The notes: generated by a model from the sequence alone, not told the origin. A DNA stretch of 64,000 nucleotides from an uncultured Mycoplasma sp. (GCA_949285105.1 CASDXH010000001.1:14180-78179); one strand, 5' to 3'; counted from the stretch's first letter, positions 73-64,000 are shown. Made by a program: numbers and translations.

Positions 73-942
73 TTATATGTATTTATTAAACCCAGAGAAA
101 TTGTACTTCTTTATAATTTCTTTAAGTTTCTCATTATCCTTATTTCTTATTTCTAAATCTGTTAAGGGTTTGTTATCAAAATAGTCTAATAAGATTGTTG
201 CAAGTCTTTTACATTTAATCCCAACATCTTTATTCTCAAATATTTTAGATTTAACTGATTTTGATTCAATAAAATCTAAATTCGCAATTATTTTTTCTAG
301 CGTCCCAAAACGTTTTAACAGATCAATGGCTGTTTTATGTCCTATACCTTTAATACCAGGCAAGTTATCAGATGAATCTCCAGCAATCCCTTTATAATCT
401 GGAATTTGACTTGGTTTTAAACCATCATTTAAGTTTTCAAAGTTTTCTTCTGTATAAGTTATTGTTTCACTTATCCCTTTTTTAAAATGGATTACATTTA
501 CATTTTTATTTACCAATTGAAGAATATCTTTATCTGATGTGTAAACATCACAATCAATCCCTGAATCTGATAATACTTTAGCACTTGAACCAACAATATC
601 ATCTGCTTCAATTCCTGGAACACAAAACACATTAAAACCAAAATAAGGCATTATGTCTTGTATAATTGGAATTTGTTTAATTAAATGTTCTGGAGTTTTT
701 ACCCGATTAGCTTTATACTCCTCAAACTCCTCTTTTCTAAAGTTTTTTTCTTTGTGATCAAAAGCTATAATAGCATAATCATATTTTTTAGATTCTAAAA
801 TTTTATAAATTATTAGCATCATAGTTTTAATGGCATTAGTTGGGAAAACATTATTTTTAATAAAAAAATCTAATTGGTTAATTGTCCCATAATATGCTCT
901 AAACATTAACGAGTTGCCATCTATTATTAGTGCTTTTTTCAT
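73..942 (-). CDS. 5'-3' exonuclease (Pol I N-terminal domain-like, FEN family)
   Basis: Intact 289-aa ORF, MKKALIIDGNSLMFRAYYG..., with IEADD, GDSSDNLPGIKGIGHKTA (H3TH) motifs typical of 5'-3' exonuclease. It has no polymerase domain, as in Mollicutes. Confidence 0.9.
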   Translation of the reverse strand: MKKALIIDGNSLMFRAYYGTINQLDFFIKNNVFPTNAIKTMMLIIYKILESKKYDYAIIAFDHKEKNFRKEEFEEYKANRVKTPEHLIKQIPIIQDIMPYFGFNVFCVPGIEADDIVGSSAKVLSDSGIDCDVYTSDKDILQLVNKNVNVIHFKKGISETITYTEENFENLNDGLKPSQIPDYKGIAGDSSDNLPGIKGIGHKTAIDLLKRFGTLEKIIANLDFIESKSVKSKIFENKDVGIKCKRLATILLDYFDNKPLTDLEIRNKDNEKLKEIIKKYNFSGFNKYI

Positions 943-5130: not shown

Positions 5131-6288
5131 CTACCCCTCAATAATTCTTAAATTTTTTATAGCACTATTTTCTAATAATTCTAATAGTTCTAGACTTTTT
5201 TCATTTATTTTTGCACGCTTAATTGTTGGTCTAGTAATTGGATTTTTCGGTGCAAATAAAGAACAAATATCTTCATGGTCTGTAATAGAAATATCATAAG
5301 TCCCAATTTCTCTTGCAATTTTAATAATATCATTTTTGTCATATGTTAAAAGTGGTCTAAATACTATCATGTCATTAACAACTGAATTTATTGTTGTCAT
5401 ACTTTCAATAGTTTGAGATGCCACCTGACCCAGTGAGTCTCCACAACATAAAGAATCATACTTTAAAGACTTAGCTAATTGGTTTGCTATTCTATAAAAA
5501 CTTCTTCTCATTAATGTTATTCTATACTTCTCATCCCTTGCATGAGTTAATTCATGCTGTATCTTTGTAAAATCCACAATATAAAATTTGGGTTTAAATA
5601 TTTTACCATTTAAAGTTACTTTATTTATCAAGTTTTTAATTTTATCAATTGTTTTTTGTGTAACTTCAGAAGTAATGAAAGTTAAATAATCTACAGACAA
5701 ACCTTTCTTTTGAACCAGAAAAGATGCCACTGGAGAATCAATCCCCCCAGAAATTAATGAAAGACACGAACCATTCAATCCAATAGGCAATCCATTACAT
5801 CCTTGAATTCTATTGAAATAAAATAATGATTTATCTTTTCTTAATTCTATTCATATGCAAAGATTTGGATTATGAACATCAACTTTTAAATTTGAACAAG
5901 AAGCTAAAAGTTTGGTTGCTACATATCTTTTTATTTCTAAATGATCTAACCCTATGTCATATTTTCTTTTAAGTTCAATTTTAAAAGTTGTTTCTTGCTG
6001 AGGAATTATTTTCTTAATTGATTCAGATATTTTGTCCAAATCAGTTTCAGTTTCATAGGCTTCTATAATATACATTATTCCTGGAGTTAAAGAAAGAATT
6101 TTTATAATGTCTTGTTTTTCAGAAGCATTATTGAAAAGCACTTTTGCACAATCAATTTGTTTTTCAACAACAACATCATATCCATTTAGAGAACTTTTTA
6201 TATTTTTAATTAACTGGTTAATAAATTCATTTTTATTATTACCCTTTAATGTTAGATCACCATACTTTATATATATAATCTCTTTCAT
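5131..6288 (-). CDS. thiI: tRNA 4-thiouridine(8) synthase ThiI
   Basis: Fragments 5851-6288 (ferredoxin-like/THUMP N-terminus) and 5131-5790 (PP-loop SGGIDSPVA) are in one frame, joined through a TGA. 385 aa. Confidence 0.9.
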
Positions 6289-6480
6289 CTAACCTCCAGG
6301 GGATATTATATTATGATAATACAAAAATTAACTTTATCAAATTTAGAATAAATTAAAATAATTCACCAAAAAAATTATATATGAATGCAAATAAATAATT
6401 GCTTTATTTTAAAATTCTGTTTCCAAATTACAAAGTAAAAATATTTATCTAATATTAAAATAAAACTATTGAGGTGAAAT

Positions 6481-7125
6481 ATGAACAAAAAAATAGAAGC
6501 ATCAATTTTAGCTTTTGAAAAAAATTTTTTCAAATTTAAAAAAACATCAAAACTTATGTGAGAACAAGGTATTACAAACATTCATTATGATGTAATGGAT
6601 GGGATATTTGTTCCCAACACTGCATATAATGGCGAAAGAATAAACTTACTTAAAAAAATAGGATTTAAAATTAGCGTCCACTTAATGGTCACAGATGTTG
6701 AAAAATATATAAAAAAATTTGTTTACAAGAACATTGATTATTTGACATTCCATTGCGAAGCAACAGATAAAAATAAAGCGATGGAAATTATTAAATTTAT
6801 CAAAGGGAAAAACATAAAAGCTGGGATAGCAATAAAACCAGAAACTCCAATAGAATATTATATAGAACTTATAAGAATGAGTGACATTATCACTGTCATG
6901 GGTGTTCAACCTGGATTTGGTGGACAAAAATATATTCCCCAAACTACATACAGATTAAAAGAGTTGTCAAAATTAAAACCTGAAGGTTGTATCATCCAAC
7001 TTGATGGTGGTGTTACAACAGAGATAATAAAACTAACAAAAGAATATGTTGATTCTTTTGTTAGCGGAAGTTTTTTAGTTAAAACAGAAAATAAGAAAGA
7101 AATTTTAGACTTATTAAATAACTAA
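6481..7125 (+). CDS. rpe: ribulose-phosphate 3-epimerase
   Basis: ATG at 6481 follows GAGGTG. It reads MNKKIEASILAFEK...LMWEQGITNIHYDVMDG, with one TGA=Trp, into track ORF 6595-7125 (GVQPGFGGQKYIP, DGG). 214 aa. Confidence 0.9.
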
Positions 7126-7976
7126 CTTTTCTTAAGGTCACTTAATCAGAATTTGTCATCATCACCAAGTTCTGGACTAATACCTGAAATAATGTGTTGG
7201 TTATATCAATCTCTTGCAATATCTATAATTTTACTAAATGCATCACGATCCAAAGTTAGTTCTACTAATTCAATTTTTCTTGTCTTTGGATCAAATTCCT
7301 CTGGTCTTGCATAATCTTCTTTTTCTAAGAAAGCGATTGCAAAAATACCTTTAGATATATTTCTTAAATATAGATATAAAGAAAGTTGAAGTTTATATTC
7401 TAATGGAACTTCAATTTCTTTTTTTTCATTGTATCAAGATTCAAGCTTTCCTCCTTTTAATTTAACAAGCGGAATATTTTCGTCATCTTTTTGAAGTTTC
7501 AAAACACCGTTTTCATTTTTATAAACAAATGAATCTATAGATGTAGTTTTTATTTCAAGCATTGGCAAATTTTTATCATATAAAAAATTACCATTGTTAT
7601 CAATTGGTTCCCCATCTGGAATACCACCAAATATTGGGTCATCAAAAACGTCTCATTTTACTTCAAATGGATTATATTGTTTAAAAGAAATATCTAATTT
7701 TTCTTCAACATATTTTTTGACTTTTGGTTCAATAGCGTTTCCAACAAATGATAGGGTTTCATCCATTTCTTCATAATAAATGTTTGTCATCATTGCCCAC
7801 ATTTTTGCTGGAGAAGTATATTGGTTTCTATTAATTATAGAAGCTAGTCTACTACCAGTAATCTTTTTGAACTTTTTATTGTTTGCTAAAAGATAGTCTG
7901 TTGAAAGATGTATTCTATTGTTTTTGATTGTAAAATCTACACCATATTTAGCTTTAAAAGGCATCTTAAACCTCAT
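7122..7976 (-). CDS. putative PD-(D/E)XK / YqaJ-like nuclease
   Basis: Fragment 7653-7976 continues in frame through four TGA codons to TAG at 7122-7124 (every codon checked). Contains DGEPID...LPMLEIKTTS...EYKLQLSLYLY, which matches a D...E-x-K nuclease core. 284 aa. Confidence 0.5.
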
Positions 7977-8106
7977 GTAATTAAATAATATTTTAATTAT
8001 ATAGAAAAACTTACTAATTTATAAAATTGTAACATTTGTTAAATGTACACTGTGGTTTTTAATCATTAAATAAGTTTTATAAACTAAAGAAATTCATAAA
8101 TAAAAA

Positions 8107-8134
8107 CTCTACTATGTTTTGCAACATAGTAGAG
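8107..8134 (-). terminator. rho-independent terminator after ispD
   Basis: Perfect 12-bp stem ctctactatgtt/aacatagtagag with a 4-nt loop, followed on the minus strand by a T-run. Confidence 0.6.
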
Positions 8135-8153
8135 CTGAATTTTTAAACCTGAA

Positions 8154-8858
8154 TTACTCATAGTTATTTTGTGCGACAATTTTTAATGCAACCTCATAAT
8201 CGAATTCAGTTGTTATTTTAAAGTTTTTTGATTCGCCAATAACATTACTTATTACAACATTATTTAAATAAAATAATTTAATTACATCATTAATTTCTTG
8301 GTCATTAAAATTTGTTGCAAGTTTGTTATAGGATCTTAGTTTAAAAGATTGTGGTGTTTGAACACAATAAAATTTACTTCTATTTGGATAGCTTAATATA
8401 TTGTTGTTTATATCCATTTCTAATAATGAATCAATTGTTGGAACAATTGTATTTACAACTCCAAAGTACTCTAGTCTTTCAATGTGGTTATTAATTAATT
8501 CATCGCTAACAAATGGCCTTGCTGCATCATGAGTAATAATATTAATTTCAAATACCTTATAAGCTATAGTGTCGTTAATGACTCTAATTGCATTGTTTAA
8601 ACTATCATATCTTGTTGGACCTCCAGAACAAACAATTATTTTTTTATCTTGATACTTATTTTTTACTTCTGCTTTTATGTGTTCAACATATTCAAAATTT
8701 GTAACAAAGAAAATTAAATCAATATTTGGATTTTTATAAAAGGTATTAAGACTATAATGATAAACTCTTTTATCATGACCTAATGGAAGAAATTGTTTAG
8801 GTAAGGATGAGTTAATTCTTTCTCCAATGCCTGCAGCTAAAATAATACCTATGTTCAT
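8154..8858 (-). CDS. ispD: 2-C-methyl-D-erythritol 4-phosphate cytidylyltransferase (IspD/TarI family)
   Basis: Intact 234-aa ORF with ILAAGIGERINSSLPKQFL, GGPTRYDS, HDAARPF and QTPQSF motifs. RBS AGGAG. Confidence 0.8.
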   Translation of the reverse strand: MNIGIILAAGIGERINSSLPKQFLPLGHDKRVYHYSLNTFYKNPNIDLIFFVTNFEYVEHIKAEVKNKYQDKKIIVCSGGPTRYDSLNNAIRVINDTIAYKVFEINIITHDAARPFVSDELINNHIERLEYFGVVNTIVPTIDSLLEMDINNNILSYPNRSKFYCVQTPQSFKLRSYNKLATNFNDQEINDVIKLFYLNNVVISNVIGESKNFKITTEFDYEVALKIVAQNNYE

Positions 8859-8867
8859 ACTCTTCTC

Positions 8868-11800
8868 CTAAAAAAATGATATTTGATTATCATCTTCTAA
8901 ATGTTTTAACACACCAAGTTCATTTAATATACTTAGATGCGTTTTAGTTAATTTAGTTCTTTCCATTAAATCTTCTTTAGAAGTAAACGGACGTTCTTTT
9001 CTTGCTTCTACAATTGAATTAGCAACTGCTTCACCCAATCCATCAATAGCACTAAAAGGTGCTATTAGATGTGAATCCTCAACCACAAATTCTGTTGCTA
9101 AAGACTTGTTTAAATCAATATTCTTTATTGCATATCCTCTTGCAACCATTTCTAAACAAATTTCATATATTGGTAATAAATCTCATTCTTTGTTTGTTAC
9201 TGTAGATTTAGTTTTGTTATTATAGTATCTTTTTTTAATATCATTTATCTTGTCTTCAATAGCGTGCTTTCCAGCTATGATTGAACGAAGATCAAATGAC
9301 TGAGTTCTAATAGACAAAAACGAAGAATAAAAATATAGTGGATAATAGATTTTAAATCAAGCTATTTTTCAAGCCATAATAACATAAGCTGTTGCATGAG
9401 CTTTTGGGAAAAGATATTGAATTTTATTACAAGAATTAATGTATCATTCAGGAATGTTTTTTTCTTTTAAAAGCTTTTCATATTCAGGTGTTAGTTGTTT
9501 ACCTTTTCTTATGTCTTCCATTATCTTAAATGACTTAAGTGAATCAATTCCTTTTTGAATTAGATAAACCATGATGTCATCTCTACATGAGATAACTTCT
9601 GAAATTTTAACTCCACCAGTTTCAATTAAATCCTTTGCATTATTTGTTCAAACAAATGTACCATGAGATAAACCAGAAATTCTTATTAGATCTGAGAATT
9701 TTTTAGGTCTAATTACAAGTAGCATTTCTTTAACAAAGTTTGTACCAAACTCTGGAACTCCATTTGTACCAACCTTAAGAATTTCATTAACATCACCGAA
9801 TTTTAAATCTAGCGATTCTGTAGAACTAAATAGCTCCATAACCTTGTCATCATGCATTGGTATTGTATCTGGATCAACATTTGTTTTTTCAGTAAGCATT
9901 TTTAATACTGTTGGATTATCATGTCCTAGAATATCAAACTTTAGTAAGGTGTCATGTAAATATTCAAAAGCAAAGTGGGTTGTTAATCAACCTTGTGATT
10001 TGTCATCTGCTGGATAATTTACCGGTGTGAAATCATAAACATCAAATTCGTTTGGTATTACTATAATACCACCAGGGTGTTGGCCGGTTGTTCTTTTAAC
10101 ATCTTCACACTTAGTGGCCATTCTAGTAATTTCAGCACCTCTCACTTTATCTTTACCAATGGATTCAAAGTAACCTTTTACAAGACCATAAGCTGTTTTT
10201 TCAGCAACAGTACCAATTGTACCTGCACGAAGCACTTTGCTTTTACCAAACATTTCTCTAATAAATTCATGAGCTCTACTTTGATAAACTGCTGAAAAGT
10301 TTAAATCAATGTCTGGGATTTTGTCTCCATCAAATCCCATGAAGGTTTCAAATGGGACATTGTGTCCATCACTAATTAATTTGTTATTACAGTAAGGGCA
10401 ATTTTGATTTGGCAAATCAAAACCACTTTGATATTCATTCATAAATTTAATGTACTTACAATTTGGACAAAGATAATGGGGAGGAAGTGGATTTACTTCT
10501 GTTATGTTAACAAGTCATGCTGCAAGAGAAGAACCAACAGACCCTCTTGAACCAACCACATAACCATCATTAATTGACTGCTTAACAAGTAGGTGCGAGA
10601 ATCAATAAATCATTGCATATCCATTGCTAATAACAGATTCTATTTCCCTATTAATTCTATCCAATATAATTTGATCTATTTTTTCTCCATAGATTTTTCT
10701 AGCATTTTCATAAATTAATTCTTTTAATTTTTCTTCTGCACCATTAATTGAAGGAGAAAATAATTCATCTTTAATAGGTTTAATTTTTGGTTCAAACATG
10801 TCTGCAATAGCATTTGGGTTTTTAACAACTATTTGTTCAATCAACTCTTTATCTTTTAAGAAGCTAAATTCATGTTTCATTTCTTGTGTTGTTCTATAAA
10901 ACAAATCAGGCATTACTTCATTTTGCCCATCATATCTATAGAATCTATGTCTTTTACCACCAATTGATTTTGAATGTACATATACATCAAAAAATTGTTT
11001 ATCAGATCTATTAATATAATATGTGTCAGAAGATGCTATCACTAATTTATTTAATTCTTTTGCAAATTTAATGATTCTTTTTGTTGCGTCAATGTAAGCT
11101 TCTTGAGAATAAACTTTTCTACTTATTTCATGGGCAAAACAAGATAAAGGAGATATTGTTATAAAGTCATAATATGATATTGCTTTTTTAAGTTCTAAAT
11201 CTGTATCTGACATCGCTTTATCAATAAGTTCTCCCTCAGTTGGTGAGTTTGAAATAAGAAAACATTTTTTATTATCATCAATATTTTCTTTATATATTTT
11301 TGCACCTTCATAGAAGTTATCTGTAAGTGATATTGAAACTAATTTATAAAAGTCTCTCATGAATTCTTTTTTAAGACAGTAAACTGTAACCCAATGTCCT
11401 CTAGTTCTAGATTTTAAGTATTCATTATTTTCCAATCTTTCATTAATTTCTTTAAAAGTGAATATTTGTTCTTTTTCCAAAATTTCAATGAATTTTTTTC
11501 ATACTGATAACAAATATTCACAGTCCACTAATGATCTATGAGCTACAGTTTCATCATAGTTAATTTTAAACTTTCTACAAATTGCTCCTAGTGTGTGTCC
11601 AGATATTTGTTCATTCAATGCTCTTGATAAGTAAAGAGTATCAACTGAAGTATTTGTTATTAAAGGCATATTGTGTTCTGCAAATTTACAATTTAAAAAA
11701 GGAATATCAAATTTAAATCCGTTATGTGCAACTATAATAGCATCACCAAAAAACTCTCTTATTTTTATTAGGGCCTCTTTTATAGAAATACCTTTTTTAA

Positions 11801-21604: not shown

Positions 21605-22642
21605 TTATCCTTGAGATGTTTGATCTATTCCTTTAAAGAAACCTAACATATTAATGTTTAAAGGAAGTGAAATAGTTGCTTGGTTTGTATTATTTTTATA
21701 AGCATTTCTATACTGAGTTACTTGAGTCGTATTGGTTGGGTTTAAATTTGAATTGTTATAGTTGTAAGTAACATTATAGATAATTTTTCCCTCTTGAGAG
21801 TTATCTTTATCAAGACTGTAGTTTGAAACCATAGGACTATTAGCAATACCTTTTTCAGTTATTGAATAAGCATCCAAGTATTTTTTTTGTTCTGTGTCTT
21901 CTTTTGTTTCAGCATCCAGTTTAGCTGGATTTGTGTTTAATGTAACAAAAGAACCAGTTTGATTATAGGTTCAAGAATATATACTTGTTAAACCATTATT
22001 TGAAGGTGTTTTAACATCAAGGTTAGTAATTTTCTTTCCAGTAGAACCACCTTGCGTTGTTACATTGTAGTCCAAAGTGTAGTTGCCATATTTTGCAGTT
22101 GATTGTGTATCATTTCCAGTAAAACTAGTACTTGTAGTAACTCCTCTTGCATTTACATTTTGCATAGAGATATCACCATTCGTTCCAAATGTTACATGAC
22201 TACTTGAAATTGAACCACCATTATATCTATCACTTAAAAATACATCTGCATTATAGTTTGTTGAAGTAATGTTGTACCGAATTTTTGCAATTAGATTATA
22301 TTGGTTATCTTTTGTTTCAAGTTCTGTAAGTGTTTTCATATTTGCAGATTTATAGTTGTAATAAGAAACTGTAAAGTTAGAAGCTGAAGTTTCTTGAACT
22401 ACAAGCTTTGAAGGCATGTTGTATTGAATTCATGTTTGAACTGACATTTCATCAATTTGAAAAGCACCATCACCATTTTGCCCAAGTGATGTAGTAGCAT
22501 TTGCAATTGAAGTTGCAAAAGCATCACCTCTAGGGTTTTTATTACCAGAATCTATAATAGCTCAAGATGCAACAGCAAAAACCCCTAAAGTTAAACAAGA
22601 AGCAGCAGAAACAAGTGCGATTTTCTTTCTCGAATTATACAT
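21605..22642 (-). CDS. secreted/membrane-anchored Asn/Thr/Tyr-rich surface protein
   Basis: ATG at 22642 gives MYNSRKKIALVSAASCLTLGVFAVASWAIIDSG (signal/anchor). It is in frame with fragments 21971-22417 and 21605-21877. 345 aa. No motif I recognise. Confidence 0.6.
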
Positions 22643-33382: not shown

Positions 33383-33925
33383 TTATTTTAAATATTGGAA
33401 GCCGCTTGGACCTTTTTTCATATTGAAGTCTTCAAGTTTTTTTGGTTTGCTATATCTAAATGATTTTTTAGAAATAAGAGCATGTGCTTCTTTTTTTCCT
33501 TCATAGTAATCATCAAACTCTTTTTTAGTAAGTACTGAATTTTTACCAAATCTTGTTCAAGATGTTGATAGAGCATGAATATCTATCTTCTCTAAGTCAA
33601 ATTCACCAACAACTGCTTGAATTGGTGCAGTTGCATAAATAAGAACTCTTTCAACTTTATTAACTGGTGTAACCTTATAGAAAAGAACATTAGTTTCAGC
33701 TTCATCTAATAATTTATTAGCGTGTTTTGGAGAAGCTGAAATCATGATAATTGATGTCTCTTCAACTTTAACATTCTTTTCAGATGGTTTACTTTCAACA
33801 ACTTTTAATTGTTGTTGTTCTCTTTTCAATGCTTCTGGATCAACTACTTTTACAGGCTTTTCTTCTATAGGTTTTTGAATTGGTTTTTGAACTAGTTTTT
33901 TAGGTTCAGGTTTTTTAGCAGGCAT
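33383..33925 (-). repeat. copy 1 of the duplicated linker plus ASCH-like coding module (S3 tail)
   Basis: Homologous at DNA and protein level to 34602-35156. Both copies end with the same ...[21 protein letters not shown]. Confidence 0.85.
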
Positions 33926-34582
33926 TTCTCTTTTTTGAACTTTTTTATCAAAGATTTCACCACGGTTAATTCAAACCTTAACACCAATTAAACCATAAGT
34001 TGTATGAGCTTCTTCTAAAGCATAATCAATATCTGCTCTTAAAGTTGTTAGAGGAACAATACCTTCTGAATATCCTTCCTCTCTAGCCATTTCAACCCCA
34101 CCAAGTCTACCAGACACGTGAGTTTTAATCCCTTTTGCTCCATTCATTAAAACTTTTTTAATAGCAATTTTTTGAGCATTTCTAAAAGAGATTCTGTTTT
34201 CAATTGCATCAGCAATTTCTCTTGCAATAATTCTTGCTGATAAAGCTGGTTTTTCCAAAGCTAAAACATTAACATTAACTTTAACATCTCTACCAACAAT
34301 TAGATTTACATCTTTTTTAACAACTTTTAAAGTTGCCATATCTTTACCAAGAATAATTCCTGGTTGAGAACAATGAATAAATAGATCTATTTTTTTCTGT
34401 TGTCTTTCAATTTCAATGTTAGCAATTTGCGCAGCTTTGAATTTTTTAATTAAATGGTTTCTGATCTTATCATCTTCAACTAATCACTTAGCTGTTTGTT
34501 TTCCATCTAAAGCGATTCATCTTGATTGTCAGTTTTTGTTAATCCCGATTCTTAATCCATTTGGATTTACTTTTTGTCCCAT
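33383..34582 (-). CDS. rpsC: 30S ribosomal protein S3 fused to a C-terminal Lys/Pro/Glu linker and an ASCH/PUA-like domain
   Basis: ATG at 34582 after GAGAGGA ([29 protein letters not shown]...). In frame through TGA codons with 33971-34339 and 33557-33925, down to TAA at 33383 (all gaps checked). 399 aa, against about 215-235 aa for a usual S3. Confidence 0.9.
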
Positions 34583-46341: not shown

Positions 46342-47391
46342 CTATTTGTTGTATACAACTTTTCTGTATTCTGGTTTCTTTTTAATAACTTCTGGCAAAA
46401 CAATTTCATCATCTTTTTTACCAACAAATGATTTTGGCAATCCTTTACCTTCAGCAATTGCATCAGAAAGAATTCCAATTAAAAGATACACAGATTTAAT
46501 TGAGTAGTTGTTTGCTGGAATTACATAATCTATATCAGTTGGGTCAGCATTTGAGTTACAAATAGCTACAACCGGAATTCCAAGTTTCTTTGCTTCTTTT
46601 AAAGCATTCTTTTCATTTTCAGGGTCAGTTAAAATTAAAACCTTTGGTAGTTCTTTCATAGTTCTAATTCCACCAAATGCTTTAGCAAGTTTTTCTGTAT
46701 CTTTTTTAATTTGAACTTGTTCTTTTTTAAGATACTTTTCAACTTCACCAGTTTTGTGGATAACTAATAAGTTATTGAATTTTTTAATTGAATTACTTAT
46801 AGTTCTAAAGTTTGTAAGAGTACCACCTAATCATCTTTCGTTGATGTAGAAAGATTGAGTTCTCTTAGATTCTTCTTTAACATGATTTTTTATTATCTTT
46901 CCTCTAGTACCAACAAATAATGCAGTGCCGCCGTTTTTAGTTAAGTTAACCAAAAAGTTATAAGCATCACTTAAAGCCATAACAGTTTGCATTAAATCAA
47001 TTATATGGTTAGTACCTTTTTTAGCATAGATATATGGTTTCATTTTTGGATTTCATTTTCTAGTAGTTAATCCAATATGAGCCCCTGTTTCCATTAATTT
47101 ATTAACACTTACAAGTTTTCTAAACTTGTTGTTTGCCATAGCTGGATTTGCATTAATTTTTAACATAATGTTATTTTCGATTTCAGAAGCTTTGTCTTTG
47201 TAACTTACTGGTTCTGAAGTTTTTGTAACATTAGTATTAGTAGAAATTGGTTTTTCTAATTTTTTAGTTGCAGAACTTTCTTTTTTTGTTTTTGTTGTAG
47301 TAGCTGGTTTTTTAGCTACTTTTTTTTCTGCTTTTACAGCAACTGATTTAGTTGCTGATCCAACTTTTTTTTCATCTGCTTTTTTAGGCAT
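46342..47391 (-). CDS. rpsB: 30S ribosomal protein S2 with a roughly 90-aa Lys/Thr-rich N-terminal extension
   Basis: Fragments 47053-47391, 46831-47043 and 46342-46659 are in frame (gaps checked). The S2 core begins near LVSVNKLMETGAHIGLTTRKW. 349 aa. Confidence 0.9.
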
Positions 47392-53355: not shown

Positions 53356-53420
53356 ATTGTCAAATACCTCAATATTAATTATGATATATTGTTTTTTAAA
53401 ATTTATAGTAACAAATAAAA

Positions 53421-53442
53421 AACATAACATTAATGTTATGTT
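53421..53442 (-). terminator. terminator hairpin after the 1372-aa surface-protein gene
   Basis: aacataac / gttatgtt stem flanked by A/T runs, immediately downstream of the stop at 53451. Confidence 0.5.
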
Positions 53443-53450
53443 TAAAAATA

Positions 53451-56400
53451 TTATCTAAAGTTGTGTTTTCTTTTTTTGAATTCTTCATCAAGTCTTCTAT
53501 CAAGTTTCTTAGCAATTTTTCTTCTATCTTTAATGTTTTGGATGTATCCAAGAGTTAAGATAGGGATTAATAGAACAACTGTAGGAATAACTACTGATAG
53601 AACAACTATATCTCATCTAGTACCTTCATTTGTTGGAACAAACACTCTCATTCCAGTATATGTAATATTACTACTTGTAGTTTTACCAGAGAATGGGTCT
53701 TGAATAGTAATTGATACTAATAATGTTCCAGTAGCATCATCTGGTCCTAAAGTAATTTCAACTGGGTTATTGTTATTGTTGTTGCTTATATTATACAAGC
53801 TTGCAACATCATTCACTGTAACTTCTGAAGGAAGTTTGCTTTTTATAACAGCAGCTTCTGCTGAACTATCTTGCATAAATGTAATAGTTGTTTCAGCTGT
53901 ACTTGTATTTCTAAATCCACTATATGGCGTTGGTGGAGAAATAGTTTTAGTTACACCATTATCATTTATAGTGAATGCAACATTTAAAGTACCAGCAACA
54001 TCATCAGCAATTAAAGTTACTGAAGATATATCACTATTTGCAATATCTAAGCTATTTGTAACATTAGCAAAATATAATAGTGCTGATTTCTTTTGAGGAT
54101 CATCAGTATTTAACATAAATCTAGCAGTTAAAAGTTCTTTTGCTCTTGAAGGAACATTTGCATTAGAGAATGCACTATTACTTCCATCAGAAGTTGAGAT
54201 TTCATTGAAAGATTTAAATCCAACAATGTTAACAGGATTTTTACTTGTTTTGAAACCGCCATAGATTCTTGTGAATGTTTTTGTTGGGTAAACAGTAGTA
54301 GTTTTAGAATTTGTATTTTCAATATAGTTTTTGAATGAAACACTTACCTCAAGAGTACCACTTGAACGTGACGGAGTTAAAGTAACTGTTGCTTTGTCTT
54401 TAGTAGCGTTGTTGCTACCATAGTTTAAAACGCCAAGGGTCTCTAATTGGTTTTGAGTTACATCTGTTGCAAACATATTAGATGCACCACTAATTGTTTC
54501 TCCAAAACTAAATGTGTCAGCTAGTTGACCAGTTAAACTAGATCCACTAAATCCACTATAAGTAATTTGAATAGTCTTATTGTTAAAGCCACTAATATTT
54601 GCTCCAGATACATCAATAGAAATATCCAATGTACCTAATGTATCATTACCATTGGCTTTTACTACTTGAAAGTTTTGTCTTATGTAATCATTAAAGAACG
54701 AAGAGAAATCTGCAAAGTAAGATAATAAATCAATTTTTGATTCAGCAACATCACCATTTAATATACTAGCTATCGTTGAAGGTTTTTGTCCACGAATAGT
54801 AGTTGTATCTCTACTTGAAGTATCACTATTTAAAGTTGTATTTAAAGCTTGTTCATTAGGTTTGAAAGAGAAGAATATTGGTCTATTTGCACTTGCATTT
54901 TTTAAAAAGAAACTAGGAGTAGTAAATACAAATCTAACGTTTTCTTGGGTTCCAATTTGAGGAACAGTTAGATCAACTAGTATCGTACCATCTGCATCAT
55001 TTGGTGTAAGTTGAACATTATCTTCAGTGGCTTTTATTAAATCATCATTTTGCTCATTGTTAAATGCAGAACCATAGATTATAAAATCATCAAGAATTTC
55101 TTTTTTAGAAACAGAAGAAGCAACTTTATCTGAATATTTAACACTTAAGTTTTCATATTTTGTAGAAGTTTTATCATAGTTAGTATCTACTACTTTGACA
55201 CTACCTTGATCTCCATATTTATCAACTCTAAAGAAAGGAACAAGTTCGCTACCTAAAGTACCCGAGAAAGTTCAATTTTCACGCTTAGTATATGTTTCAC
55301 CTTCTTTAGTTCAAGCAATTGGAATAGTAACACTTATATCCATAGAACCATTTTGATCATGTGGAGTAAATGATACTATAGGGTTAGTAATGTTTGTAGT
55401 TTGAATTAAATACTTTTTAACTTCATCAGCTGTTATTTCACTAGGTTTTTTATTTCTAATATATGTTGGTACTTCAAAATTTAATATACCGTCTTGTCCA
55501 TCTTCTTGTCTTTCAGCAAACGTAACAGAAGTTTCAGCATTGTTAAAAGTATATTGTTGTTTACCAATAACAATTTCTTTTGTATCTGTTGAATTAATAC
55601 TTCCGTCAATATTTACTTGTCTAAGTTTTTGTTTGAATGTTAATTCAATAGTATAAATTCTTTGGGCTTTTTGACTCGTTAATGTACTGGCTTGTGGATA
55701 TTCAATAACAATATCAGGGTTAGTAGTAATACGTGGATCAATAAAGTTTATGTTTAAGAAATCTCTATAAGCAGTAGATGATTTTAAGTAAGTTTCAAAC
55801 GAACTAGTGTATTGCCCATCAGCATTAAGCACTTCTTGATATAAAACAGATTGGGAAACTTCACTATTTGATTTAATAGAAACAGAAGCTGGAAGCTCTC
55901 TGTTTGCTGAAGAAGAAAGTTTATCTCATTGACCAATTAATGTACTACCTAGGAATTGAGCAAAAGTCCCATCTTCCATTTGAGCAAATCAACTTGGATT
56001 AGTTCTTCTTGTTACTAAGTTATATATTTTTCCTAATTTAATAGTAGAAGTTTCAAAATCATATAATAACTTAGGGTTTTTCTTACTTGCATCTAATTGA
56101 ACTACTCTATTTTGTTCATCTAGTAATACATAACCATCAATTGCATCTTCATTTGCTTTATATAATTTTTGAATTGAATATAGTTTGCTATTTGAATATA
56201 AATAATCAAATAGATCAATGTTTCTTTCAGCTAAATTAAATGCATTAGATAGATTTAATGAAAGTGACCCTATTTTTGAAGGATTTGGTGAAATTGATTC
56301 ACTATTCTTTTTAAATGTGTAGAAAAGTTCATAAGATGTACTTGAGTTTTGGATTATATTAATTCCAGAAAGTTTTTTATCAGCTAAGAATTGAGGGTTA

Positions 56401-57569
56401 TTTGTATCATTTAATTTAAATGTTGTTGCATTGTTTTTATCATTAACATTTATAGTTTGACTACCAGTGTTTACTCCATCAATTTTTATAATAGATAAAA
56501 ATTTATCTTTAGTTTCTGTACTGTATTCCTCTGCTTGATAAGTTAAATATACAGTAGCACCATCTCTGACTGTAATAATTGGTTTGTACTTTTTATTTGA
56601 AGCAAATGCTTGACCACCAAGAACAGTTGAATCTATTGTTATTGTTTTAGTAACTGTTGGTTGAACTTGCGGATTAGAAAAATCAGTTTGACTCAAACTA
56701 ACAAAACTCATTGATGCATTGGTTGTTGTTGCAATTCCTCCAGTGTTATTAGAATTTATATCAGGCACATTCATTATTTGCATAGTGTGAGTAGAAGAAG
56801 ATTCAAGAACCATAAAGTTATAATCTTGTGTTCCACCTGATGGAGCATCTAAAACTTTTACAAATTCATATGAACCACCCTTCATCTCTTCCTGACCAGT
56901 TAGAGTTTGATTTTCTCATTGAATTCTAAATAAATAAAATTTAGAATCATTCCCTTTTGTTAACACAAATAGAGATTTACCAGCACCATTACCACCAGGA
57001 GAATAAAGTAATGATTTAATAGTTAAAGAATTAAGAGATGTAGTAGATCCTGTTCCTGTACCACCGCTATTGGTTTTAGCAGCACTAAATAAATCACTTG
57101 TTTTTACAACTCAATCAATTGAACCAGCAGCTGATGCCAATCCACCACTACTTCCAGTATTAAACGTATTAACTAAATTAAACTTAGTAATTTCATCTAA
57201 TGTTAGAGCTGCTTGACCACCAGTGCCACCAGAAGTAGAACTATATTTTGTACTTGAAGTAATTGTTGCATATGCATTATAGTCATAATCATATACAGTG
57301 TTTTGTTGAGGAATATTTGAATTATTAGTAATAATATCATTCAAAGGAACAATATTAGTTGTTTTATTTGTATTTGGATTTTTAGTTAGTGCCTTTTCTG
57401 TTACACCAGATCTTGAAACATTCGTTTGTGAGTTAAGAGATGTTTGATATGAAAAAGAATCAACAGAATTATTGTTGATCAAACTTGCAGAAACAACTGA
57501 AACAACACCAGTTGTTACAAGTGATAGTGTCGAAATTTTAAATAATCTATTTTTTAAATTCTTTTTCAT
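53451..57569 (-). CDS. very large modular surface protein (1372 aa): N-terminal signal peptide, repeated modules, C-terminal TM anchor
   Basis: Fragments 57111-57569, 55989-56885, 55311-55832 and 53613-54629 share one frame. All gaps checked: only TGA. N-terminus MKKNLKNRLFKISTLSLVTTGVVSVVSA. C-terminus WDIVVLSVVIPTVVLLIPILTLGYIQNIKDRRKIAKK... Recurrent (D/N)xxxGTLxVxxxI ... GF(K/R) modules. Confidence 0.85.
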
Positions 57570-57587
57570 ATTTAACCCTCTCTAAAA

Positions 57588-60182
57588 CTAAAATTTATTT
57601 TTAATCTTGTTTGTCTTAACTCTATTAAATATAGTCTTACCTAGATATCCACCCAGTCCTAATACTACCAATCCACCTAATATAGCACTTAAAATAACTG
57701 TTAGATCAACAGGCGCTTTATATGAGTTTCTATCTTCTATACTACCTACAGGGAAACCTCTAAGTACAGTAGAGAATTTATTATTAGCCATTGGGATATC
57801 TTGATTAAATTCATCAATAGTAACATATACAGTTAATGTACCAGTATCTGAGTTTTTAACTATTTGTACATTTTGATTTGTAAGATTCATATCTTTAAAG
57901 AAATCTATTTTCTTTAAGTATTGGTTTATTACATCATCAACAGTAATTGATTCAAGTTCTTTTTGTGAAAGAGTTGCATCAACTTCTGAGTTATTTATTC
58001 ATCCAAATTCTTGGAATTGTTCGTTTGTAGCCTTAAACCCAGTAAAAATTCTTGTTTGTATATTTCCTGAATTAACTGCTTTTGCAGTAGCATCATTAAG
58101 AAAAGTAGTTGCTGATCTTTTCTTTACAGTAGTAGTGTTTGATTGAGCTTTAACAATCAAACTACCTGTAGAGTTATCAGAAAAATACGATAATGTAGCA
58201 TTTGCAGGAACTCCGTTCGTGAATGCTGTATTTAAACTATCGTTTGTATATAATAGGTCAACAATTTCACTTGGAGAAAAATCTGCTATAGTTTTGCTTT
58301 GATCATTTGGACTAGTTTTAATGATTGCATTTATATCATTAGCAACTGTCGTGTTGTCTTTTCAGTTAACTGAAACTGAACTATCGATTGATGGAAATTC
58401 AAAAGTTTGAATAATTTGTTTACCATCAACTTTATTTCCACTAGACATATATGATTCTCCATTTCAAGAATCAAATGTTAATGTCATTTTTACATTTTCA
58501 GTAGGACCTGTTGCTCTTTGCCCATTATCATTTACATATTCAAATTGAACTTGTCTATCTTTAGATAAAGCATCGTTTGTGCCATTAACAAATAAGTTAG
58601 ATAAAGATTTTAAATAAGTATTGTTTGTTTTGTTGGCTTCATATAAATCCATTAAGTCCTTTGATGAAGTAAATGCATTTACTTCATTAGGGGCTTTAGC
58701 TGACAATATTAATTGTTTTCCAGCATCTGGATTTACTTTAAATGACCCAGCAGGGAATGTTTGAGATAAAACAGCATCTTTAATAGTCTTACCAGAATAA
58801 ACATCATAGTAGTCATAATGATAAGTGAATATTGCACTACCATCTTTATCATTTGGAGTTACATCAATACTTTTTATATCTGAATCTTTTCTATATTCTT
58901 TTGGTAAGATTTTGTTATCAGTACTATTATCATTAAATTTTCTTACGTCCTTACCAAAATAAGATAATTTAATTAAACTATCCGAAACTTGCGGTTCTCT
59001 TCATTCATTATTATATAAGAAATTTAATAATGAATTACCATTTAGACTTAATTCTTTTAGTTCACTAGGCATTAAGTTAGATAATTTGCTTTCATCATTT
59101 AATAAATATTTAGTAAACGGATTATTAGTACCAGTTTTCGTTATTGTGGCATTTTTTATATTATCAATATTTCCATTGTCTAAGAAAACATTAGTATTTT
59201 GAATTTCACCATTCTTAGAATAGAATCCTCTAAATACTTTTTTAATTTCTATTCACTTAGTTTGAGTATCAGTTTGGTCTTGTCCTTCTATTGCTCCAGA
59301 AGGAAAACTATCACCTATTCAATCTGTTTTTTCTGTATTGTTAAACTTGATTGAAACTTCAAGTAGACCAAATTTATCTCAATTTGTAAAGTTTTCACTA
59401 GAAGATGCATCTTGAGTGAAATTTTTTATTGTAATGTCATAATCATTTGGAACAATATGATTATCATCTTGCTTTATAAAATTGGAAAAAATTGAAGCAG
59501 GCGTTATATTTCCACTATTTGCTTCTAATCTATCATCAAATGTTTTTTTAATGTATGCACCAATAATGTCATCATCATTTCAAGCAAAGTTATATTTTTC
59601 TATAACTGCTAAATCTTTAAAGTTTCCACCAATCGTTCCTCATGCAGATGGTGTTATTGGGACTTTTGAATAATCTTCATAAGTAGATCATGTATAGTCA
59701 ATATCATTGGTACTTGTCGCACCAGGTTTTTTTATTTTAACTTCAACAATAGGTGTGTTTGGATCTAAAACGCCATTTGAATATTTTTTAGCTATTTGTG
59801 TTATTGTAAATCTAACTCCACCACTTCTTCTATCATCATTTGAAATTGGTAGAATTTGAACATTGTAATCAACAACGCCAACAAGGTTTTCCCCGCTTGT
59901 AGTATCATAAGGAATTAATAAAGATTTTATTTGTTCATTTGTTACATTATCAACACGTTGTTTTCCTCATCACTCATTTTTTTGAGCAACATCTTGCTCA
60001 ACAAATTTGAAACCAGCTGTGGCTTCTTGGCCGTCTTGGATTGCTCTAGTTTTGGGATTAGAAATATCATAGCTTAAGTTAGATTGAGTCAAGCTATTAT
60101 TGATAGTTGCAACTGAGGGAATAGTAGCAATTACTGTTAACGAACTTAATCCGATAGTTAATATTTTTAATGTCTTTTTCAT
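57588..60182 (-). CDS. large modular surface protein (864 aa): N-terminal signal peptide, C-terminal TM anchor; paralogous module type
   Basis: Fragments 59970-60182, 58464-58706 and 57588-57890 are in one frame. Both long gaps checked codon by codon: only TGA. N-terminus MKKTLKILTIGLSSLTVIATIPSVA. C-terminus LTVILSAILGGLVVLGLGGYLGKTIFNRVKTNK. Modules ...SDTGTLTVYVTI...LRGFP and ...DNSTGSLIVKA...FTGFK. Confidence 0.85.
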
Positions 60183-60308
60183 GACTCAATCCTCTCATTG
60201 TATATATAAAAATTATAAATTTTATAGAAACCAAAATCAAGTTTTTGAATATGTTTTTTACTTACATGATATAATAATTAATTTATAAAAAATTGGTTTT
60301 CACCAATT

Positions 60309-61476
60309 CTCCATAACTGACATGTGAAGTGCAACAATTTAATGTTGCATTAAACTCTCGACCTTAAAATATAAGTAGAGAGTTTTTTGTTTTAAATATT
60401 TTCTTGGTACAATTGATAAGCTGTTTTATAACCAAACATTTTTCTTGGCATATTATTTAATTTTCATTCAAGAGTTTTAATTTTATCTTCACTTACTAAA
60501 CTAAAATAAGTTCCTTTCTTATATCATCTTCTAACTACACCATTTATGTTTTGTTAGTACTTCTTTGGAATGAAGAATAAAGTTGACAATAATAAACTTT
60601 AAAGTTGAATTGTTTTGCTTTTATACCCATCATTTGAAACTCTAATCCTTTATCAACAGTTATGCTCTTGATTGGTAATTTTCATCGCTAATAATGGTGT
60701 ACATTTTAGCCAGCATTGACCTAGTTTTTTTACCTTTTATTTTTCTAATAATTGCCAACATTGTTTTTCTTTTAACTAATATTAATAAGTGATAGTATCC
60801 ACTCTGTCTTCTACTAACTATTAGATTGGTTTCTCAGTGCCCAAACTCTTTTCTGTTATTTAACTTTTCTGGTCTTAAACTATATGGAATATAGTATTTT
60901 CCATCAATTTTAGAAAATATTCTTATTTTTCTTATTTTTTCTTTAACATATTTTCTTCTTAAACAATCCCTTCTTTGTATCTTTCAAATATTGCTATTTA
61001 TTCATCTAAAAACTTGTTTAGTACTTGAAAATTTAACTAATGGATAATTTTTCTTTATTCAAAAAATTGTAGCTAGAACACCATGGGATTTTGGGTTAAA
61101 TTTTTGAATAAAAATATCAGTAAAGTTTTTATATTTCAACATAGAAAATAAATGACAATTAGATTTTCTTCTAATGTATTTTTTATGAGCAGATGATGAA
61201 TAATAAATTCCAGTTGAAGATGTATTTCTCTTCAACTCTCTAGATATTGTTGATCTATTATTTATTTAAGATTTTTAATATTTTATTCATTGAATATTTT
61301 TCTTTATTTCAAAGTAAATAAATTAAGTGTTTTCTTCTTTTGTTAAATGTTTATAAGTGTTCATAGGTACTCCTAATACTTATTATCTTTTTTATTGGTG
61401 AACACTTACAAATAAAATAAATGAAGTGCACACTCTTTTTGAGTGTTGCACTTCACATGTCAATCCAGCAAAATTC
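60309..61476 (-). mobile_element. decayed IS30-family insertion sequence
   Basis: 18-bp perfect terminal inverted repeat, gacatgtgaagtgcaaca (60319-60336) / tgttgcacttcacatgtc (61444-61461). Flanked by the 13-bp direct repeat gttttcaccaatt (60296-60308 and 61477-61489). The interior encodes an interrupted IS30-type transposase. Confidence 0.8.
60392..61364 (-). pseudogene. IS30-family transposase, disrupted by frameshifts and stop codons
   Basis: MNTYKHLTKEENT*, then a shifted frame LIYLLWNKEKYSMNKILKILNK, then NNRSTISRELKRNTSSTGIYYSSSAHKKY...GHWETNLIVSRRQSGYYHLLILV...SRA*, then a shifted frame ITVDKGLEFQ...YYCQLYSSFQRSTNKT*... and the C-terminal ...KQLINCTKKIF. This order matches an HTH, DDE, C-terminal IS30 layout. 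Confidence 0.75.
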
Positions 61477-62430: not shown

Positions 62431-64000
62431 TTAATTACTATTTAATGAATCTTTTTCTTTTTTAGTTCATAAAGAATTTAATTCAGAATATTTTTCAAGT
62501 TTTTGTTCTGCTTCTCTAATCTTCTTGTTTACTTTAACAGCATTAGCTGCATCATTACCAACAAATTCCATGAAGTTTTTTCTATCTTTTAATTCTTCAA
62601 TTCTCTTCTCATTTCATAAAGAAGTTAAATCATATTCACCTTTAGTACTAATAGTTCCAGAAACATCTGGAATAACCAATACTGTACCATCATCTAAAAC
62701 AACTTCTTCTTCACCAAGATTATTTATTTTTAGATCTTCTTCATCATCTTCAACATCTAAAGTTGGGTAATCTAAGAAACCATCATATTTAACTTTTTCA
62801 ATCATTTGAAGATTTAGTTGTTCTTGCTTATCTAAGTTAATTCCCTCTAAGAATTCACCATCATATGCAATACCAGCAATTGCATTTTCATAACGTTTAT
62901 TATATTTAAGATCATATTTAGATATATTTTTCTTAACTTCTCTCTTCTTGTCTTGAACAATTATTTTTATAGATCTAAATCATTTAGAGTAGTTGTAAAC
63001 AATTTTTCTTGTTAATGGATTTAATTTAAAAGCTTCAGCTTCAAATAGATCATCATAAGATACATCTATTTGAGATTTCATTTCAGCATATTTTCTATTA
63101 GCTTGTTCTAATTCATTCTTAGATTCTTTTACAATGTATAAAGTTTCTTTAAATATTTCATAGTAAGCTATTACTTTTTTAAAGTCTGCTTCATTAAAAG
63201 GACTATCTGGTGATACTTCTTCATCTTCCCCTGGTACTTTAGGAGCAAAGTATTTATTATATACATCATCTACATCAGCTTCTATATTTTCATAGAATTC
63301 AGCTATTTTAAATGCATCATTTGTGTTTAAAATATCAACTTCTGATTTAAATAATCTAGTAAAGAATGAGTATGGAAGAATTTCATCATCCAAAATTTTA
63401 TTAATTTTCTTAATACTCATCTTAGGCATTTTTCTAGAAATAATAGGAGTCAATTCATCTTTTACTTTATTAACTCAATTTGTATTTCTTTTAATTTGAG
63501 TTCTTCATAAGAAACTATCAAAGAATCTATTTGATAGTTTAGTCATCTTTGATAGTTTAATTTCGTCATCAAATAATGTCATGATTGTTCTATTGTAGTT
63601 GTATTTAAATCCTACAAAATCAATGTCATTATATTTAATATATTCTAAAAGAACATCGAACAGTTTCTTTCTGGATTCTGGTGTTGTAAAAAGCTTCTCA
63701 TGCGTTTTAATAATTTCTTTTAAAACAATGTACTGACGTTTTTGATTTACATATTCATCAGTCTTATTAAAGTCATTATATAAAGATAAATTATTTTCTT
63801 CGAATTGTTCAATTAAAGGAGAAGCTAAATTATCTTTCCAAACATTATAGTGATCTTCTAAGCTTTTTTGGATTTCATTTTTGCTAAAGTTTTTAGTAAT
63901 TAATGATCTATAATAAGTTTTTTCATCTAGATTTTCTACACCCAAAGTAACAAGTAATGTTGAATATAATCCAAAAAAGTCACTAGTTAACTTTTTAGAA
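62431..64000 (-). CDS. large uncharacterised acidic protein, C-terminal part (gene continues beyond the right edge)
   Basis: Fragments 63505-63945, 62980-63453 and 62614-62805 share one frame. The frame is still open at 64000. TAA at 62431-62433. No motif I recognise. Confidence 0.6.

Follow-up and report, generated by a model that had tools for sequence, protein, structure and literature searches.

What do two very large, adjacent genes with no characterised counterpart contribute to the biology of a mycoplasma? The genes lie on the minus strand of a 64,000-nucleotide (nt) stretch of DNA from an uncultured Mycoplasma sp. (GCA_949285105.1 CASDXH010000001.1:14180-78179), the whole of which is called the window here, and they encode the proteins that we refer to as PA (A family) and PB (B family). 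An earlier note, made from the sequence alone, had described them as a tandem pair of modular surface proteins and possible adhesins. Our results show that both genes are intact, that PB carries a repeated Lipoprotein_17 stalk below an N-terminal head predicted to be a beta-propeller, and that PA is related to the headless remainder of PB and accompanies it in other genomes. We propose that the A-B pair forms a heteromeric, fibrillar adhesin-like surface complex that would bind host ligands, a reading to which we give about an even chance of being right.

Gene integrity, stalk modules and membrane anchors

Long reading frames are found in the window, which has a G+C content of 27.8%, only when TGA is read as tryptophan. 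Translation with table 4 places the PA gene at 57588..60182 (minus strand, start at 60182 and end at 57588), coding for 864 amino acids (aa) with TAG as stop codon, and the PB gene at 53451..57569 (minus strand, start at 57569 and end at 53451), coding for 1372 aa with TAA as stop codon. The gap between them is 18 nt, and the two sizes and the spacing given by the earlier note agree with this translation to the base. Every tryptophan is encoded by TGA, at 12 positions in PA and at 7 in PB, and the table-4 translation contains no TGG and no internal TAA or TAG in either gene. At six of the seven TGA positions of PB (W153, W218, W527, W548, W753 and W1319) a tryptophan is invariant in independently called public homologs. 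Close homologs of PB (n=19, 76-94% identity) and PA (n=6, 67-98% identity) include a single named match, a hypothetical protein of Malacoplasma iowae. An in-frame TAA or TAG, which the note had named as an observation that would overturn its gene models, is absent, and the frames are open and conserved in many independent assemblies, which rules out a pseudogene or an artefact.

The body of PB matches the Pfam family PF04200 (Lipoprotein_17) over six stretches, with a score of 40.8 bits against a cut-off of 22.4 (E 2.8e-10), and a PF04200 match is present in 25 of the 26 B-family members. By this match PB belongs to the PF04200 repeat superfamily. Pfam and a hidden Markov model (HMM) that we built from the six modules define a stalk at 53640..55472 (minus strand, residues 700-1310), with module boundaries at residues ~702-774, 811-888, 932-1010, 1028-1109, 1148-1222 and 1241-1310. 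The modules are not repeats at the DNA level, where self-BLAST gave no matches, and they can be detected by profile methods only. An AlphaFold2 (AF2) model was made on P0019, a protein 90% identical to PB that covers residues 1-1145, without modules 5-6 and the anchor. In this model each of modules 1-4 (P0019 residues ~698-1099) is composed of helices and then three strands, mostly with a predicted local distance difference test (pLDDT) score of 63-88. This predicted fold, obtained on the PB side, agrees with the published description of Lipoprotein_17 as helices plus a small three-stranded sheet (bioRxiv 10.1101/2022.09.07.507039).

PA as a whole protein has no Pfam match, and the same is true of the A family (0 of 41 members scanned). 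Its module 6 alone reaches 20.2 bits against PF04200 (E 7.4e-4), just below the cut-off, and its module 5 is matched to module 4 of PB by hhalign at 92%. When the two families are compared as profiles (41 A and 26 B sequences), hhalign gives 99.2% with an E of 1.5e-19, and the match is collinear over 615 columns, A columns 59-820 corresponding to B columns 630-1296. Because of this collinearity PA is, at the level of sequence profiles, a paralog of PB without the head, matching its stalk, membrane helix and tail. It contains six divergent Lipoprotein_17-like stalk modules and is best described, from these scores, as a divergent PF04200 relative rather than a formal Pfam member. The repeated units of ~90-120 aa that had been noticed by eye are therefore real, as PF04200 repeats in PB and as divergent copies in PA; all six of the module examples quoted for PB fall inside the PF04200 stretches, and the two quoted for PA are its modules 5 and 6. 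The suggestion of a type-17-like family on non-lipoprotein anchors was also sound, since PB scores above the PF04200 cut-off and has no cysteine.

Both proteins appear to be built for export and membrane anchoring. Hydropathy analysis detects exactly two hydrophobic segments in each, an N-terminal h-region preceded by a Lys-rich start and a C-terminal helix. The signal-like N-terminus of PA (residues 1-25, minus strand) has small residues of the signal peptidase I type after the h-region (SVA, then T), and the signal-like segment of PB (57483..57569, minus strand, residues 1-29) is made of MKKNLKNRLFK, a hydrophobic core and SAS, then L. At the other end, PA has a Gly-rich membrane helix (residues ~826-848, minus strand, LGGLVVLGLGGYLG) followed by a Lys/Arg-rich basic tail (residues 849-864, minus strand), whereas in PB the membrane helix and predicted cytoplasmic tail are encoded at 53454..53615 (minus strand), with the helix at residues 1319-1342 (conserved IP..LLLIPIL) and the tail at 1343-1372. 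Tails of the B family share the motif K-x-LD-x-RL-x-E-x(2)-KK(K/R)K, and ancestral B1-type tails carry an extra C-terminal V-x2-I-x-DLL that the lineage of the window does not have. By sequence and hydropathy, the layout of signal-like start, large ectodomain, single C-terminal helix and tail is common to all A and B relatives.

The topology proposed earlier, a signal plus a C-terminal anchor, fits these features in both proteins, with the signals being predicted. The claim that neither protein has a lipobox cysteine holds in a stronger form, because PA and PB contain no cysteine at all; among A- and B-family members the count is 0-2, and none was noted in a lipobox context. Elsewhere in the window, a ~345-aa open reading frame (ORF) at 21605-22642 (minus strand), which starts MYNSRKKIALVSAASC, has a plausible lipobox (AASC) and may be a genuine lipoprotein, in contrast to the Cys-free PA and PB.

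The predicted head and its rate of evolution

Above the stalk, PB has an N-terminal head of ~670 aa (residues 30-699). The earlier note had recognised here a separate, beta-rich domain of ~450 aa; its separateness and beta-rich nature are supported by the AF2 model, but its extent had been underestimated. Modelling with 19 near-identical sequences gave a mean pLDDT of 41, and this improved after the addition of divergent B genes, which were gathered from contigs carrying A-family members. With the resulting diversified alignment of 26 sequences the P0019 model reached a mean pLDDT of 73.7, and 831 residues had a value of at least 70. Residues ~91-547 (55929..57299, minus strand) are predicted to form a seven-bladed beta-propeller, with seven consecutive groups of ~4 antiparallel strands (7 x 4), pLDDT values mostly of 70-90 and variable Gly/Ser/Thr-rich loops in its first half. 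A neck of helices and a long beta-hairpin (55488..55886, minus strand, residues ~562-694, pLDDT ~70-89) is predicted between the propeller and the stalk. Among the best 50 of 248 significant Foldseek matches to this model in the PDB, the top matches are all beta-propellers (best E 5.4e-11, probability 1.0, identity 7-12%), including WD40-type scaffolds and the extracellular Sema domains of plexins and semaphorins. A word-indexed homolog search with the head alignment returned two close fragments only. Two scans of a genome-contig collection, one with the PB family alignment and one with an alignment of the head and paralogs, matched no relative, M. iowae included, and so carry no weight for the distribution.

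Many seven-bladed propellers are enzymes, and the PB head could in principle act as a surface-tethered enzyme or a nutrient-scavenging receptor, such as a glycosidase, lyase or lectin. One B-family member does have a weak match to a PQQ-propeller family of Pfam (E 0.0046), and a lyase was reported as the closest structural relative of the propeller of Mycoplasma genitalium P110 (PMC6203739). However, no catalytic family was significant in Pfam or NCBIfam, and the top structural matches of the head are scaffold and receptor propellers of the WD40 and Sema types rather than enzymes. In addition, conservation along the protein is lowest in the first half of the head, unlike what would be expected of a domain that bears an active site. 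We therefore consider an enzyme or scavenging receptor very unlikely, even though it would account for one feature of the gene neighbourhood that is described below.

Conservation along the B family was measured as mean pairwise identity over twelve divergent B proteins. The first ~450 residues of the head reach 15-21%, its remainder 24-41%, the stalk 24-44% and the membrane helix and tail 46-48%; this last region is the best conserved of the family, for which the overall value is ~27-30%. Strains of the species in the window show a similar distribution: their differences cluster in residues 41-400, the stalk hardly changes and the length is conserved. As far as sequence comparison can tell, this gradient is what a head exposed at the surface and carried by a conserved anchor would be expected to show. 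Neighbouring housekeeping proteins are 96% (TIM), 91% (iPGM) and 88% (CysRS) identical to those of M. iowae, against 76% for PB and 67% for PA, which indicates that M. iowae and the organism of the window are closely related and that the pair evolves much faster than its surroundings.

Strong variation of the head across strains and species would also be expected if the pair coded for variable surface antigens, a protective or immune-evasion coat without specific binding, in which the head would be no more than a strain-variable, immunodominant decoy. PF04200 modules are a usual feature of Mvsp-type variable proteins (bioRxiv 10.1101/2022.09.07.507039), the B1 paralog of M. iowae is named 'lipoprotein 17-related variable surface protein' at NCBI, and the genes occur in several copies, as two pairs in the M. 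iowae clade and as four tandem A-like genes in M. penetrans. Several observations are nevertheless hard to reconcile with a coat of this kind. Besides the absence of a lipobox and of any cysteine, no tandem DNA repeats, homopolymer tracts or other devices for phase or size variation were found in or upstream of the genes; Tandem Repeats Finder returned only 2-4-copy arrays scoring 31-52 between 53300 and 61600. In all lineages the locus is fixed and syntenic, and between strains the proteins keep their length and an almost unchanged stalk. The tail motif is kept despite the low overall identity of the family, which a passive coat hardly explains. Taken together, we regard an antigen coat as unlikely. 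Were the proteins merely surface antigens, they would still provide a clean case of Lipoprotein_17 repeats on a non-lipoprotein, C-terminally anchored scaffold.

Conserved pairing and genomic setting

An exhaustive HMM search with the PA family recovered 42 A-family clusters among 1.84 billion representative proteins, nearly all of them 780-925 aa long, with full-length matches and ending in a membrane helix and a basic tail. The named members all belong to Malacoplasma (M. iowae, M. penetrans HF-2 and metagenome-assembled genomes of Malacoplasma sp.), and by this search the A-B pair is restricted to Malacoplasma among named organisms. The order A then B occurs 13 times over 10 related loci, in addition to the window, with A-B gaps of 11-47 nt. 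Wherever the locus extends far enough, a pair is found directly upstream of a double-length iPGM gene and tpiA, and the gap between the ancestral B gene and pgm, which encodes iPGM, is -1 to 42 nt in ten loci. It is this close arrangement that an enzyme or nutrient receptor in the head would explain, through co-transcription with pgm and tpiA.

A second A-B pair, located between tpiA and cysS, is present in the M. iowae clade only. The pair in the window is this second copy, with 27-31% identity to the first pair, and the M. iowae chromosome CP129195.1 conserves the gene order of the window, pgm - tpiA - A - B - cysS - spoU. Sequence and gene order indicate that in the M. iowae clade both genes were duplicated together, and the comparison of paralog families that had been recommended for this locus has thus brought out a conserved A-B unit. 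The strict adjacency of the two genes, their co-duplication and the shared stalk suggest a joint function of A and B, probably in a hetero-oligomer.

Other features of these loci are of separate interest. The iPGM protein is ~990-1015 aa long in all these Malacoplasma loci (62431-63999 in the window, minus strand, where it runs off the end; 5948-8929 in locus L001), roughly double the usual size, and Pfam iPGM domains span only part of it. In M. penetrans HF-2, four A-like paralogs of 878, 880, 880 and 881 aa (BA000026.2, ~462-473 kb; locus L003, 7177-18321) have GTG starts, signal-like N-termini, a membrane helix and near-identical tails, and are followed by an MG280-family gene. A metagenomic Malacoplasma-like contig with an A-B pair (Logan SRR31860986, locus L007) codes ~10 kb downstream for a CARDS-toxin-like ADP-ribosyltransferase (22208-22517, minus strand, partial), with Pfam matches to Pertussis_S1, Scabin-like, CARDS-D2 trefoil and CARDS_D3.

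Database searches did not connect the pair to any characterised protein. No PDB chain was matched significantly by the single PA and PB sequences or by the family profiles, which returned only a look-alike of the ErbB2 membrane helix and chance-level matches. PA and PB have no match in NCBIfam, no Pfam adhesin family was found in the 26 B-family or 41 A-family members scanned, and the public names of the homologs are all 'hypothetical' or generic. The earlier statement that no characterised counterpart exists stands on these searches, and homology to a known adhesin family, which its author would have taken as a refutation, was not detected in Pfam or by sequence and profile searches of the PDB. 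Identities with the MIB-MIP system and with P97/P102 were considered and rejected, given that neither DUF31 nor any other corresponding Pfam signature nor a lipobox is present. The label of P35-family lipoprotein, which UniRef attaches to one A1 entry of M. iowae without any domain match, was rejected as well, PA and PB having no lipobox. A propeller head on a C-terminally anchored protein with a conserved headless partner appears to be an undescribed combination, and the same holds for the A family, which Pfam does not cover, and for the tail motif of the B family.

The DNA around the genes contains a few candidate expression signals. A promoter-like TTGATT-17-TATAAT is found by consensus scan at 60212..60240 (minus strand), ~30 nt upstream of the PA start, but such sites are no commoner than chance in the region and this one is only suggestive. 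The hexamer GAGAGG precedes both starts, as part of a Shine-Dalgarno-like GAGAGGA at 60190-60196 before PA and of AGAGAGGG at 57576-57583, within the 18-nt PA-PB spacer (57570..57587, minus strand). Directly after the PB stop, an AT-rich hairpin, AAACATAACAT-TA-ATGTTATGTTT, with a T-run (53412..53443, minus strand) looks terminator-like by eye, and was not flagged by a terminator scan because its stem has fewer than three G-C pairs. Between tpiA and PA, a degenerate remnant of an insertion sequence (IS) occupies ~60317-61467, where the tpiA-A gap of M. iowae is only 137 nt. This remnant has terminal inverted repeats (TGACATGTGAAGTGCAACA and TGTTGCACTTCACATGTCA) and flanking direct repeats (AATTGGTGAAAAC), and its interior holds a frame-shifted, transposase-like ORF that looks IS30-like from its sequence (...ISRELKRNTSSTGIYYSSSAHKKYIRRK...) and has no significant Pfam match.

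Three ribosomal proteins encoded further away in the window also have unusual features. The adjacent genes rplV (L22, 339 aa, 34602-35621) and rpsC (S3, ~399 aa, 33383-34582), both on the minus strand, share a long, nearly identical C-terminal extension made of a Lys/Pro/Glu-rich linker and a globular-looking domain of ~120 aa. The extra domain has a weak, sub-threshold Pfam match to DUF365 (E 5e-5, 24 bits against a cut-off of 25.9), and its presence on two neighbouring ribosomal proteins is unusual. Ribosomal protein S2 (46342-47391, minus strand) has a Lys/Ala/Thr-rich N-terminal extension of ~90-110 aa (MPKKADEKKVGSATKSVAVKAEKKVAKKPATTTKTKK...) before its conserved core.

Proposed function and known systems

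M. iowae, a poultry pathogen, and M. penetrans, from the human urogenital tract, adhere to cells, are capable of gliding and bear a polar attachment organelle. M. penetrans, however, has no homologs of the organelle cytoskeletal proteins of M. pneumoniae and M. genitalium, and its adhesion factors are poorly defined (PMC12398969). PA and PB could fill part of this gap. In the mechanism that we favour, both proteins would be exported by means of their N-terminal signal-like segments and held in the membrane by a single C-terminal helix, which a short, basic tail follows on the cytoplasmic side. The homologous stalks and membrane helices of PA and PB would pair side by side to give a hetero-oligomeric fibril, which may hold the fast-evolving propeller away from the wall-less cell so that it can bind a host ligand. 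Conservation of the PB tail motif (K-x-LD-x-RL-x-E...KKKK) points to a cytoplasmic partner that is conserved as well, to which the motif would link the complex. The pair would then function as a fibrillar adhesin, and no better candidate is at present available for the cytadhesin of the M. iowae/M. penetrans group.

Several points weigh against this proposal. The head model is based on ~12 sequence clusters and its propeller matches are generic, with an identity of 7-12%, and no known adhesive domain or ligand-binding motif was identified. At the second site of one related contig the A gene stands alone, and the four tandem A-like genes of M. penetrans HF-2 have no adjacent B, which means that A can exist without a neighbouring B. 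The ancestral pair looks co-transcribed with pgm and tpiA, judging from the short gaps between the genes, and this is left unexplained by an adhesin. Finally, the N-terminal segment might be an uncleaved anchor.

The adhesin proposal is nevertheless concrete and testable for Malacoplasma, a genus that includes the turkey pathogen M. iowae. If it is correct, the pair would offer a vaccine or serology target in which the variable and the conserved regions are already mapped, and would reveal in what way the attachment machinery has been rebuilt or has diverged within the pneumoniae group. It would also constitute a new protein family, with an A family outside Pfam coverage and a B head that has not been described.

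Among the known systems that come close to the pair are the PF04200 repeat proteins of Mollicutes, which include the Mvsp, Gli123 and Gli349 surface and gliding proteins of M. mobile (bioRxiv 10.1101/2022.09.07.507039). They share with PB the repeat module, present in six copies, and its predicted fold. However, they are mostly lipoproteins anchored by an N-terminal lipid, while PA and PB are Cys-free and anchored by a C-terminal helix; PA and PB also differ in forming a conserved heterologous pair in which PB has a propeller head, and in that no A-family member reaches Pfam significance as a whole protein. This relationship raises the possibility that the pair belongs to the gliding machinery of the Malacoplasma attachment organelle, with PB as a 'leg', PA as its mount, by analogy with Gli349 and Gli123, and force transmitted through the PB tail. 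Lipoprotein_17 repeats are indeed described in both Gli349 and Gli123 (bioRxiv 10.1101/2022.09.07.507039), M. penetrans and M. iowae both glide and have an organelle, for which M. penetrans lacks the homologs of the M. pneumoniae/M. genitalium cytoskeletal proteins (PMC12398969), the membrane helix and tail of PB are conserved, and both proteins are long, flexible and modular in shape. On the other hand, the similarity to the Gli proteins is established for the PF04200 repeat type only, and Gli123 is described with an N-terminal anchor, unlike PA and PB (bioRxiv 10.1101/2022.09.07.507039). The flanking genes are pgm, tpiA, cysS and spoU instead of those of the Gli123/Gli349/Gli521/P42 locus of M. 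mobile, and neither a motor gene nor a gli521- or p42-like gene is found nearby. We find a dedicated gliding role quite improbable, and it would in any case overlap with adhesion rather than exclude it.

The extracellular regions of plexins and semaphorins resemble PB in general plan, as type I membrane proteins in which a seven-bladed Sema propeller is carried on a stalk of small domains. The Sema domains are among the better Foldseek matches of the PB head model, with target-normalised TM-scores of 0.36-0.43 over ~520 columns. With an identity of 9-12%, unrelated organisms and different stalk domains, this is an analogy only.

Fibrillar adhesins, a class defined for Gram-positive and other bacteria, offer a further parallel: PF04200 is on a published list of their stalk domains (bioRxiv 10.1101/2021.12.07.471604) and PB shows the same layout of head, repeated stalk and anchor. 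In place of a sortase motif or a lipid, however, PB has a membrane helix that continues into a conserved cytoplasmic tail, and its head is not a catalogued adhesive domain and matches only generic propellers. A headless paralog encoded alongside, as PA is, is a further difference.

The pair can also be compared with Nap, the adhesion complex formed by P1 and P40/P90 in M. pneumoniae and by P140 and P110 in M. genitalium. The two large proteins stabilise each other in a transmembrane complex at the terminal organelle, and P110 consists of a signal peptide (residues 1-22), a seven-blade propeller N-domain, a stalk, a C-terminal membrane helix and an intracellular region (PMC6203739). PB has its parts in the same order, as judged from sequence and prediction, and its partner gene is adjacent; the Nap hosts and Malacoplasma both belong phylogenetically to the 'pneumoniae group' (PMC12398969). 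By sequence, however, PA and PB are not detectable members of the P1/P110 adhesin families, since there is no P1/MgPa/MgpC-type Pfam match at E<=1 for the 26 B members or at E<=0.01 for the 41 A members. Although Nap ectodomain structures are published (PMC6203739), none was retrieved by the sequence and profile searches of the PDB or is among the best 50 of the 248 Foldseek matches to the PB head model. The stalk of PB is made of six Lipoprotein_17 modules (~610 aa), rather than a single C-domain of ~125 aa as in Nap. Both Nap partners have a propeller N-domain, whereas PA aligns to the stalk only and has none, and neither a 'crown' nor a sialic-acid site was identified in PA or PB. For an A-B complex comparable to Nap, which binds sialylated receptors at the terminal organelle, the support comes from gene adjacency and co-duplication.

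A bolder idea, which we hold tentatively and think more probably wrong than right, is that the A-B pair is at once the missing cytadhesin and the gliding 'leg' complex of the organelle of Malacoplasma (M. muris cluster). The pair would then be a type I-anchored hetero-complex with a propeller head, an extremely diverged or a convergent P1/P110-type Nap, with a long Lipoprotein_17 stalk that links it evolutionarily to the gliding proteins of M. mobile and a conserved PB tail motif that serves the cytoskeleton as a handle for placing or moving the complex. Whichever of these origins applies, the predicted design of the pair follows the overall logic of Nap, with a propeller head, a stalk, a helix, a tail and a partner, and appears to assemble it from different parts.

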